Shown piece after piece: positions 22,679 to 24,550 of a DNA stretch of 64,000 nt. The translations under genes were made by a program, and so were the position numbers. Source of the stretch: Bdellovibrionota bacterium (lineage in GTDB: Bacteria > Bdellovibrionota_C > UBA2361 > JBGSMV01); NCBI GenBank assembly GCA_041739995.1, contig JBGSMV010000047.1:3972-67971 (forward strand), given 5' to 3'. Position 1 is the first letter of the stretch. Each line of letters opens with the position of its first letter. Under the pieces are notes generated by a model. It made no database searches. It was not told where the DNA came from and worked only from the letters and a program-made list of their open reading frames with translations.

Positions 22679-24550
22679 CTACCCTGGCGCACTCAAGAGC
22701 TGAATCGCTAATGCGGGCTGTTGATTTGCCTGAGCGAGGATAGCCGCCGCCGAACTTCTAAGTATGTTGAGCCTTGCAAGTTCGGCACTCTCAAGCGCGA
22801 TATCAGCATCAACAATTCGCGAGCGAGCAGCGGCGTAGTTCTCTGTAGTTGCTTGTAAGGTACCCAGTGCACTACCAAGGCGGCTTTGAAAGGCCCCAAG
22901 AACTCCGCGCTGAACGGCAAGTTGGTCTTGCTTGTTCTTGAATATACCAAAAGCTTCCCTCGCCTCTGCCATGGTTTCAAGACTGAACTCGAGCAGTGGC
23001 GCTACTCCACTTTCGGTTTGCGAAGTAAGAACAGAGGTTGCCCCAGTGCGAACTCCAGCAACATCAAGGACACCGTCTCCATTGAAGTCGGCAAGTGTAA
23101 ATCGACCGAGCTTGCCTGGAGCAGACGAAGTTTGCCTATCGTTAAAAGTACCATCGCCGTTACCTAAGGCAATCTTAACTTCATTGGTTCCAGAGCCAAT
23201 GAGATCCAAAATTCCATCTCCATTAATATCAGCGAGTTCAACGGAGTTGTTCACATCTCCGAATGCGATACTCGTTGCTGCTGCAAAGCCTCCGCTACCG
23301 TTGCCCAAGCGAATCTCAATATCTCCCTCGTTAAAGCTGCTATCAACGATGTCGAGGATGCCGTCCCCATTTACATCGCCGACAGAAATATCGTTGACGT
23401 CGATTCCAAAATTAGTGCCGAGCGAAGTCGCAACTCCAAAATTCCCATCACCACTGCCGACGCTGGTCCATAAATTTCCTCCAGCAAATCCACTCGAGCT
23501 TGCAGCAAGATCGAGAGTACCGTTTCCATCGAAGTCTCCAAGCACGACCCGGTTAATAGTGAACTGTCCACCGATGACCACCTGGTCCGAAAATGAGAAC
23601 GAGCCATCGCCATCATTGGTAAGAATATTGACTCCCTGACTGTTCGCCATGGCAAGGTCAAGTCTGCCATCGCCGTTCAAATCACCCGCCACAAGGTCAG
23701 TGGGACTGAGGCTATTGGCCGAGACTACAGGCGCAGCAAACGTCCCATCGCCATTATTCGCATACGACAGAATCTGCGTAGCGCTTGCCACAACGATATC
23801 TTGGAAACCACTGCCGGTAAAATCTCCTACGACAAGTCGCGAAACGTTGCCAGAGAAGCTGGCAATAAGCGCTGCGTTTGAGAACGTGCCGTCACCGTTT
23901 CCGTAGCTGACATTAATGCTGGAATTACCACCTCCACTGCTCAAGCTCACAAGGTCTTGAATCCCGTCACCGTTAATGTCCGCCGACTCTACTCCATTTC
24001 CGTTGGTTCCTGCAGTGAATGAGTAGCTCGTAGCCGCTGACAGAGCACCAGTACCAAGTGCACCTCCAACACGCGAAAAAAGAGAGCCCGCTTCGCCGTA
24101 TCCAGCCTGAAGCCTCAGCCCATCTACCGACCCATCAAAAAGGTTAACGCCATTGAATTTGGTAGTGCGTGCGATACGAAAGAACTCGTCGCGCAGTGCT
24201 TGAGCTTCGTTGTTCAGTGATGATCGCTGGGATTGGCCGAGAGTGCCTGAAAGGGCTTGTTGCCCAAGCTCCTTTAGTCGTTCAACTACTCCACCAAGCT
24301 GACCAAGAGCGCTCTCTGCTATGTTGATAGCTGATACGCCATCTCCGATGTTACGAATTGCCTGGGTATATACTCTTCGATCGGCACCGAGGGACTCAGA
24401 AATTGCAAGACCTGCCGCATCATCACTCGCACGATTGATACGTTGCCCAGATGACAGGCGCTCAAACACGCCACCGAGCGCTTGCTCACTACGAGTGAGT
24501 CTAGTCTGCGCCTGGAGTGACGCAATGTTTGAGCCAATGGTGATAGCCAT
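22679..24550 (-). CDS. fliC: flagellin with the central hypervariable region replaced by an FG-GAP/VCBS-repeat beta-propeller
   Basis: Flagellin D0/D1 N-terminus (ERLSSGQRINRASDDAAGLAISE) and C-terminus (ARSRIVDADIALESAELARLNILRSSAAAILAQANQQP). The ~330-aa middle carries at least six DxNGDGxxD Ca-binding-loop repeats (DINGDGIQD, DLNGDGRLD, DFDGNGTLD, DVNGDGILD, DINGDGILD, DFNGDGVLD). Confidence 0.65.
   Translation of the reverse strand: MAITIGSNIASLQAQTRLTRSEQALGGVFERLSSGQRINRASDDAAGLAISESLGADRRVYTQAIRNIGDGVSAINIAESALGQLGGVVERLKELGQQALSGTLGQSQRSSLNNEAQALRDEFFRIARTTKFNGVNLFDGSVDGLRLQAGYGEAGSLFSRVGGALGTGALSAATSYSFTAGTNGNGVESADINGDGIQDLVSLSSGGGNSSINVSYGNGDGTFSNAALIASFSGNVSRLVVGDFTGSGFQDIVVASATQILSYANNGDGTFAAPVVSANSLSPTDLVAGDLNGDGRLDLAMANSQGVNILTNDGDGSFSFSDQVVIGGQFTINRVVLGDFDGNGTLDLAASSSGFAGGNLWTSVGSGDGNFGVATSLGTNFGIDVNDISVGDVNGDGILDIVDSSFNEGDIEIRLGNGSGGFAAATSIAFGDVNNSVELADINGDGILDLIGSGTNEVKIALGNGDGTFNDRQTSSAPGKLGRFTLADFNGDGVLDVAGVRTGATSVLTSQTESGVAPLLEFSLETMAEAREAFGIFKNKQDQLAVQRGVLGAFQSRLGSALGTLQATTENYAAARSRIVDADIALESAELARLNILRSSAAAILAQANQQPALAIQLLSAPG

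Follow-up and report, generated by a model that had tools for sequence, protein, structure and literature searches.

A predicted seven-bladed FG-GAP propeller in the outer-domain position of a flagellin family from Bdellovibrionota-type bacteria

Results

A flagellin gene with a foreign centre

The stretch of DNA analysed here, 64 kb of contig JBGSMV010000047.1 from a Bdellovibrionota bacterium (GCA_041739995.1) and hereafter called the window, carries on its minus strand a complete gene for a flagellin whose two conserved ends enclose an FG-GAP/VCBS beta-propeller. The open reading frame (ORF; 22679..24550) starts with ATG and encodes a product of 623 amino acids (aa). Its GC content is ordinary for the window, and the frame is continuous, with no break in composition. 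An identical protein is present in a public protein collection (P0001). The gene and its parts are the following.

22679..24550, minus strand: complete gene of the flagellin-propeller fusion, 623 aa, 63.2 kDa, stop codon included (ORF list and Pfam)
24128..24550, minus strand: N-terminal D0 and D1 helices, residues 1-141 (Flagellin_N; helices of the AlphaFold2 model; family conservation 0.74-0.75)
24005..24127, minus strand: D1 beta-hairpin and entry strands into the propeller, residues 142-182 (AlphaFold2 strands 145-148, 156-159, 165-170 and 174-177)
23006..24004, minus strand: seven-bladed FG-GAP/VCBS beta-propeller, residues 183-515 (33 kDa; Ca-loop motifs at seven positions)
22679..22972, minus strand: C-terminal D1 and D0 helix, residues 527-623, plus stop codon (Flagellin_C; continuous AlphaFold2 helix 527-619; conservation 0.68-0.79)

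Pfam assigns Flagellin_N (PF00669) to residues 6-141 (2.7e-34; 118.6 bits against a cutoff of 26.6; profile positions 2-137 of 139) and Flagellin_C (PF00700) to residues 542-619 (7.5e-16; 58.7 bits against a cutoff of 23). The same search returned FG-GAP_3 (PF13517) in seven stretches of the fusion protein (3.6e-50, 168.8 bits) and FG-GAP (PF01839) in four (1.9e-19, 69.5 bits). The flagellin models of NCBIfam give 130-176 bits and match the two ends only; no full-length curated flagellin model was reached (best NCBIfam score 175.6 bits against a cutoff of 332), as expected because the middle of the protein is foreign. Likewise, the FlgL equivalog TIGR02550 reaches 74.3 bits against a cutoff of 127.2, in the N-terminal region only, and on this score an identity as FlgL (the hook-filament junction protein, HAP3) was ruled out. 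In sequence matches to the PDB, solved filament flagellins cover residues 1 to ~190 and ~504 to 619; the N-terminal part aligns to residues 1-150 or more of these proteins, and with the S. maltophilia flagellin 9atl the alignment persists up to query residue 186. Integrin-like fungal lectins were the sole non-flagellin PDB sequence matches.

Seven Ca-loop repeats and a closed propeller in the predicted structure

Scanning for the loop pattern D-x-[DNT]-x-[DNS]-G-x-x-D located seven Ca-loop motifs, which start at residues 191, 243, 290, 339, 392, 441 and 488 and are thus spaced by 47-53 residues; composition-matched shuffles averaged 0.04 of these motifs, and none of 5000 had more than two. Five of the seven are exact DxNGDGxxD, one reads DFDGNGTLD and one is a degenerate DFTGSGFQD. 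In FG-GAP propellers a DxDxDG Ca2+ loop lies between strands A and B (PMC8023676), and by sequence pattern the fusion protein has six canonical loops of this type in addition to the degenerate one. Across 46 family members, positions 1, 5 and 9 of the predicted Ca loops show full or near-full conservation (≥ 90%) in most blades. Compared with one another, the blades share 23-53% identity, and no tandem repeat was found at the DNA level in the fusion gene; the repeats are therefore old, and recent repeat amplification was ruled out.

With the 46-member family alignment as input, AlphaFold2 returned a model with a mean predicted local distance difference test score (pLDDT) of 83.7 and a predicted template-modelling score of 0.76. 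The model contains helices at residues 7-34 (N-terminal D0), 41-100 and 106-129 (N-terminal D1) and 527-619 (C-terminal D1 and D0), and a D1 hairpin at 145-159. About 28 more strands (pLDDT ~85-94) lie between residues 165 and 513; the propeller closes with seven blades, and its first and last strands pack beside D1. When the whole chain was compared with the PDB by Foldseek, the top matches were filament subunits solved by cryogenic electron microscopy (probability 1.00), while the centre matched the lectins AAL2, PAL and PVL (E ~1e-12, 22-26% identity over 330-370 columns, target TM-scores of 0.53-0.60). The propeller is thus modelled exactly in the position that D2/D3 hold in other flagellins. 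Its 333 residues (33 kDa) are strongly acidic, with a net charge of -31 and an isoelectric point of 4.05; the family median for the net charge of the propeller is -29, and D0/D1 are about neutral.

An earlier note, made from the letters of this DNA, had described flagellin D0/D1 segments at both ends of the ORF and an integrin-type FG-GAP/VCBS propeller in place of the variable region, and had proposed structure prediction as a check. The first part agrees with Flagellin_N, Flagellin_C, the AlphaFold2 model and the fold searches, and the second with the domain searches, the model and the fold searches; the confident model indeed shows a seven-bladed insert between the D1 helices. The note had further counted at least six repeats, each with DxNGDGxxD. 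The repeats hold and number seven, but the exact motif is confined to five of them.

A large family with a probable single origin

The architecture recurs widely. In a collection of 5.8 billion proteins we found at least 120 clusters at 90% identity, all with Flagellin_N, FG-GAP and Flagellin_C, that are 39-75% identical to the query; the fusion proteins listed are nearly all ~570-670 aa long, a few being truncated or longer. At the level of 50%-identity representatives, 61 full-length fusions stood among the best 150 matches, so that there are at least 61, and fusions persist down to 409 bits. The remainder of these 150 matches are giant multi-propeller FG-GAP proteins of 1,400-7,400 aa. Among the matches listed, the best non-flagellin relatives of the propeller (P0242-P0369; 1,400-7,400 aa) have 5-23 FG-GAP propeller-like stretches and are 32-40% identical to it; judged by sequence similarity, such giant proteins are candidate donors of the inserted domain.

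The taxonomic range of the family was read from a few source names and from the loci that were fetched. Among the matches listed, named members come nearly all from metagenome-assembled genomes (MAGs) of Bdellovibrionota; they are called 'VCBS repeat-containing protein' on MAGs of Bdellovibrionales or Deltaproteobacteria, 'FG-GAP-like repeat-containing protein' on one Pirellulales MAG, and, for many members at JGI, 'flagellin-like hook-associated protein FlgL'. For the window itself, the closest MAG proteins to its SufB are labelled Proteobacteria (88%) and Bdellovibrionota (82%), which places it only roughly. Scanning genome contigs with peptides specific to the single query protein yielded mostly ordinary 286-aa Bdellovibrionota flagellins or propeller-only proteins, with L001, from the Lake Mendota series, as the sole true fusion; matches with a span of 1-619 merely connect the two ends of the query there. 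A metagenome scan with the family alignment, which drew on generic flagellin N-terminal patterns, added only L087-L090.

We built a neighbour-joining tree, without support values, from the D0/D1 regions only, using the 15 fusion proteins known as DNA. All 15 fall into one clade with every ordinary flagellin outside it, and the nearest neighbours of this clade are 286-aa flagellins of Bdellovibrionota MAGs. The monophyly of the fusions beside these flagellins fits a single insertion of the propeller into a native flagellin of that phylum.

Constant ends and a variable propeller among paralogues

At least six fusion copies are present in one MAG, GCA_030431715.1, four of them head to tail and two on other contigs. 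The tandem array (L081; JAUIIO010000024.1, 8149-15570) encodes proteins of 616, 621, 622 and 610 aa separated by gaps of 1-2 bp, and a perfect TTAAG-N16-CCGATA promoter motif lies upstream of its first gene. Pairwise identities between the tandem copies differ sharply by region.

N-terminal 145 residues: 88-95%
C-terminal 95 residues: 91-95%
Propeller: 34-38%

This pattern suggests either that gene conversion has kept the ends alike or that the middle has diversified strongly. Family-wide, conservation is 0.68-0.79 in D0/D1 and 0.55 in the propeller. Within each blade, the Ca loop and a GxGDGTF turn are nearly invariant, and the 2-3 loop and the segment of strand 4 and the connector are variable. 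Constant polymerisation surfaces combined with a hypervariable exposed domain are the classic signature of flagellins, here borne by a propeller.

Promoter and leader of the fusion genes

Two elements precede the gene in the window.

24606..24633, minus strand: candidate FliA (sigma-28)/attack-phase promoter, TAAAG-N15-TCCGACCT, ending 55 nt before the ATG
24551..24592, minus strand: 5' leader with repeated GGA motifs, AAGGAT ... AAGGAA-cgcc-AAGGAA-ATG

The -10 block TCCGA(C/A)CTC occupies the same position in the window gene and in a 75%-identical relative (L080), and no sigma-70-like site was found in the intergenic region upstream of the window gene. Among 11 independent family genes, four have TTAAG-N15-[GT]CCGAT upstream, 47-151 nt before the start codon; this strict FliA motif compares with 0.027 in shuffles and with none on the reverse strand. 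The motif is the published FliA consensus of Bdellovibrio, derived experimentally for the attack phase of B. bacteriovorus as TTAAG-N16-CCGATA (PMC3627812). Ordinary flagellin genes, used as a control, had no sigma-28 motif within 220 bp (0 of 31); these genes have a long conserved leader instead, and the comparison is therefore uninformative.

Repeats of AAGGA(A/T) around the ribosome-binding site are common to the window gene and L080. Nearly all of the ordinary 286-aa flagellin genes of Bdellovibrionota MAGs (L002-L018, L057) carry a leader of the form '(C)AAGGAT... ~25 nt ...TTCAAGGAGGAA-N5-8-ATG', that is, two GGA motifs of which the second lies on the ribosome-binding site, as in flagellin mRNAs controlled by CsrA/FliW. 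By analogy, we tentatively regard the leader of the fusion gene as a putative site of CsrA-type translational control.

Genomic neighbourhood

Besides the fusion gene, the window contains housekeeping genes, two subtilases, a two-component pair and a Tad/Flp pilus cluster. The one motility-related neighbour of the flagellin gene is a small divergent ORF.

25227..25442, plus strand: YjfB_motility-family ORF, 71 aa (PF14070, 29.5 bits against a cutoff of 27), ~680 bp upstream of the flagellin gene

YjfB-like ORFs were absent from all other family loci examined, which rules out YjfB as a conserved partner gene, and the link between this ORF and the flagellin gene may be coincidental. The flagellin gene and the YjfB ORF, together with a flavin adenine dinucleotide (FAD) oxidoreductase and a subtilase, stand between scattered parts of a Zn/Mn ABC importer (21697-22677, 27362-28117 and 30611-32904), namely a ZnuA-type binding protein, an ATPase and two ABC-3 permeases; it looks as if these four genes had been inserted into a former importer operon. 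The second permease is fused to a DtxR-type Fe_dep_repr_C domain, an unusual permease-repressor fusion.

Elsewhere in the window, a Tad/Flp pilus cluster on the minus strand (49810-57421) comprises a TadG-like protein, two TadB/C-type T2SSF proteins, a CpaF-type ATPase, RcpC/CpaB and a ParA/TadZ-like ATPase, and is adjoined by a hybrid histidine kinase and a response regulator (46205-49124). A three-gene set on the plus strand (34867-38020), a conserved but poorly understood module, encodes a putative ATP-dependent Zn protease, an inactive transglutaminase-7-TM fusion and a RimK-like 'sugar-transfer associated' ATP-grasp protein. The two subtilisin-family proteins (Peptidase_S8; 28441-30390, 649 aa, and 58545-60398, 617 aa, both on the plus strand) are consistent with a predatory or proteolytic lifestyle.

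The neighbourhoods of eight other family members, labelled with Pfam, have no shared synteny. In the closest relative (75% identity), an ordinary 264-aa flagellin lies 5 kb from the fusion gene. In GCA_030431715.1, a 916-aa methyltransferase/glycosyltransferase with a faint Maf_flag10_N match is encoded 3 kb upstream of a propeller-flagellin gene (L084, 4337-7087). Maf_flag10_N is the motility accessory factor domain, tied to flagellin glycosylation, and the 916-aa protein is possibly a flagellin-modifying enzyme. Around the member from the 'Pirellulales' MAG (L086, GCA_040902605.1) and two further members (L168 and L169), the neighbours include TrwC relaxase, TraG/TrwB coupling protein, phage-like genes, transposases or RHS toxin. 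The Pirellulales name is the sole label from outside Bdellovibrionota, and it may reflect either horizontal transfer on a mobile element or mis-binning.

Discussion

A proposed coat of propellers on a flagellar filament

The fusion protein is most likely a flagellar filament subunit of an uncultured Bdellovibrionota-type bacterium in which D2/D3 has been replaced by a propeller, and we favour, at a probability of roughly 0.6, the reading that the filament is real and that the propellers give it a variable coat with a protective or hydrodynamic role. On this proposal, the D2/D3 outer domain would have been exchanged, once in evolution, for a seven-bladed integrin-type propeller. The protein appears to lack a signal peptide and to have an N-terminus typical of flagellins; it would leave the cell by way of the flagellar type III apparatus and assemble into filaments through D0/D1, each subunit then presenting a single propeller at the filament surface. 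Every propeller would be stiffened by Ca2+ bound in the 1-2 loops of its blades, and thousands of propellers would together form a thick protein coat of strongly acidic character. The conserved face of the propeller would be that of the Ca loops, the other face (2-3 loops and blade connectors) being hypervariable between paralogues. Paralogues with near-identical cores could then co-assemble or alternate and so offer a repertoire of filament surfaces in the motile (attack) phase, with diversified binding as a secondary possibility beside the role as a coat.

Flagellar filaments consist of 11 protofilaments, with a rise of ~5 Å per subunit and ~52 Å along the protofilament. As a rough estimate, each subunit would have ~50 x 50 Å at a radius of ~90 Å, which is room for a propeller disc of ~45-50 Å. 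With 623 aa, the protein also falls within the size range of the flagellins whose filaments have been solved (488-793 aa). The proposal further draws on the intact and conserved D0/D1 ends, the confident propeller model, the near-invariant loop Asp residues, the size of the family, the paralogues with a common core and divergent propellers, the ordinary flagellin near the fusion gene of the closest relative, and the FliA-type motifs upstream of several members.

Several observations weigh against this proposal. The flagella of Bdellovibrio are membrane-sheathed, and a sheath, if present in this lineage too, would hide the outer domain. The candidate promoter in the window matches TTAAG-N16-CCGATA weakly. 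Among the ORFs of at least 150 aa scanned in the window, Pfam detected none for a flagellar structural protein, export component or chaperone, in line with the earlier note, which had seen no other flagellar structural gene there; the scan took in ~50 of the 59 ORFs of this size, and the rest are mostly antisense overlaps or a 218-aa ORF at the window end. The eight labelled neighbourhoods of other family members also contained no flagellar genes, and several of them look mobile or variable (relaxase/type IV coupling protein, transposase, RHS and phage-like genes). Finally, FliA of Bdellovibrio also drives many non-flagellar attack-phase genes (PMC3627812), and a FliA promoter is therefore not specific to flagella.

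Alternative explanations

The same structure might instead serve binding. In this case the filament would be a multivalent, Ca-dependent adhesive, the variable face of each paralogue being directed at a different glycan, prey-surface or particle ligand, and we consider this somewhat unlikely. Among solved structures, the propeller has its closest homologues in multivalent lectins (PVL, PAL and AAL2), and integrin-type propellers are classic ligand-binding platforms (PMC8023676). Six or more paralogues per genome, each combining a conserved core with a hypervariable face, would fit a repertoire of specificities, FliA/attack-phase promoters would fit the search for prey, and the acidic surface resembles that of the G. 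thiophilus flagellum, for which mineral adhesion had been proposed. However, the prey attachment of Bdellovibrio takes place at the non-flagellated pole. Drift, or escape from phages and grazers, would account for the hypervariability just as well, as in ordinary flagellins, and outside the structural motifs we found no conserved pocket-like positions. Moreover, the N-acetylglucosamine (GlcNAc) pocket of PVL/AAL2, which is formed in each blade by Asn, Gly-Gly-Trp and His of the inter-blade connector (PMC4483166), is missing. The propeller encoded in the window has one Trp and no His (family medians: no Trp and one His), and HMMER alignments place gaps in it where PVL has 'FGYAQGWRLDRH', its connectors being shorter. 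A GlcNAc lectin of the PVL/AAL2 type, which the fold matches had suggested, was ruled out on the missing pocket residues.

Going further, the filament could be conceived as an integrin-like recognition organelle, in which ~10^4 Ca-dependent propellers, taken from a genomic repertoire of interchangeable and hypervariable heads on a constant D0/D1 core, would sense, snare or discriminate prey or particles in the attack phase, or the propellers could be a protein substitute for the membranous sheath; we regard such a role as rather improbable.

It is distinctly unlikely, in our view, that the protein is no filament subunit at all and that its flagellin termini act as a type III export signal or a cell-surface anchor for a secreted or surface-bound propeller. 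The fusion genes are scattered and lie outside flagellar clusters in the loci examined, often in mobile-looking regions, but solitary flagellin genes are frequent in other bacteria. The NCBI name 'VCBS repeat-containing protein' disregards the flagellin part, the solved 'bacterial cell-surface flagellin' 3k8v is among the structural matches, and Bdellovibrio FliA also controls non-flagellar surface proteins (PMC3627812). In contrast, an export signal needs the N-terminal segment only, and the family has kept full-length D0 and D1 as its best-conserved part (0.68-0.79). The 88-95% identity of D0/D1 between tandem copies, against ~35% in the propeller, argues for selection or gene conversion that maintains compatibility, as between co-polymerising subunits.

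Even less probable is a minor or specialised component, such as a FlgL-like hook-filament junction protein or the flagellin of a short filament segment. Filaments built from several flagellins in spatial order occur in Bdellovibrio and Caulobacter, the JGI label of many members names FlgL, and ordinary short flagellins, which are plentiful in the phylum, occur together with the fusion in the closest relative. Against this, TIGR02550 stays at 74 bits with a cutoff of 127 when the flagellin models reach 130-176 bits, and at least six paralogues, including a four-gene tandem, are the pattern of major flagellins, unlike a single-copy junction protein. A chimeric ORF, mis-assembled from a flagellin gene and an FG-GAP gene, has in its favour only that the source is a metagenome-type assembly, and it is effectively ruled out by the recurrence of the architecture across independent assemblies from NCBI, JGI, ENA and Logan, in no fewer than 120 clusters at 90% identity and in 61 or more at 50%. 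The continuous frame without a break in composition, and propeller end strands that pack beside D1 in a confident model, also speak against it.

Significance

The fusion is apparently an undescribed flagellin with a new class of outer domain that is widespread in one phylum. We found no description of a propeller-bearing flagellin in full-text searches on flagellins with FG-GAP, VCBS or beta-propeller outer domains, nor in the paper on the VCBS superfamily (PMC8023676). The earlier note had called a propeller display on a flagellin unusual; that stands with respect to the literature searched, but the protein is no singular oddity, being one of a large, diverse and multi-copy family in Bdellovibrionota MAGs. 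The text of a survey of outer domains in 682 clusters mentions an aminopeptidase-like outer-domain cluster, and beta-propeller, FG-GAP and Bdellovibrio are not mentioned there (PMC11532411). The survey took annotated flagellins as its start, and it may have overlooked the fusion family because these proteins are mostly named after the repeat.

Of all parts of the flagellum, the outer domains of flagellins are understood least, and only for a few of them has a function been assigned; propeller flagellins would add a new fold class to their catalogue. They would also connect motility with surface recognition in predatory bacteria, in a way that can be tested. A natural display domain that is large, rigid and multivalent, on a filament that assembles itself, is of interest for the engineering of flagellar display. 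With near-identical cores, propellers of ~35% identity and up to four genes in tandem, the family also makes a clean system in which to study how filaments stay compatible as their surface diversifies.

Comparison with known systems

The closest parallels are filament flagellins with structured outer domains, from E. coli O157:H7 and O127:H6, Achromobacter, P. aeruginosa, Azotobacter and Geovibrio thiophilus (7sn4, 7sn7, 7sqd, 8sug, 9n59 and 9au6). Like the fusion, they have a conserved D0/D1 core into which a further folded domain is inserted, after the D1 hairpin and before the C-terminal D1 helix; they are 488-793 aa long and gave the best whole-chain matches. Their outer domains, however, have immunoglobulin-like, beta-barrel or mixed folds, whereas the fusion has a single seven-bladed propeller with Ca loops. 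The nearest relatives in D0/D1 are the ordinary Bdellovibrionota flagellins of 264-291 aa (distance 0.43-0.47; best tblastn segment up to 59%), some of which have a similar leader with two GGA motifs; they are without any outer domain and form a clade separate from the fusions.

Enzymatic flagellins of the flagellinolysin type were reportedly described by Eckhard and colleagues in 2017, and giant flagellins are said to have been described by Thomson and colleagues in 2018. Both set a precedent, in that the variable region can give way to a large functional domain of which a working filament displays thousands of copies. Their inserts are a metallopeptidase or very long and multi-domain, whereas the propeller of Ca-loop repeats has no catalytic signature. 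The flagellin-fold protein p5 of Sphingomonas sp. A1 (3k8v, 3k8w and 2zbi), reported as a cell-surface binding protein, is in turn a precedent for use outside motility; unlike the fusion, it has a small, non-propeller outer domain.

The propeller itself resembles the lectins PVL, PAL and AAL2 (2bwr, 4up4, 5mb4 and 4tqj) in its seven blades and Ca loops of the DxxGDGxxD type (E ~1e-12 to 1e-14, 22-26% identity). The lectin blades have 55-57 residues, an N...GGW...H connector and, together, six GlcNAc pockets (PMC4483166), whereas those of the fusion have 47-53 residues and lack the Trp and His; the homology therefore holds at the level of fold and repeat only and does not carry a function over. 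The FG-GAP repeat, the DxDxDG loop and the seven blades are likewise shared with the integrin alpha propeller, the VCBS/FG-GAP superfamily, CRTAC1, ITFG2 and the propellers of TcB/YenB toxins (PMC8023676). None of these integrin and VCBS propellers has flagellin termini; in the family described here, one such propeller is grafted into a self-polymerising scaffold.

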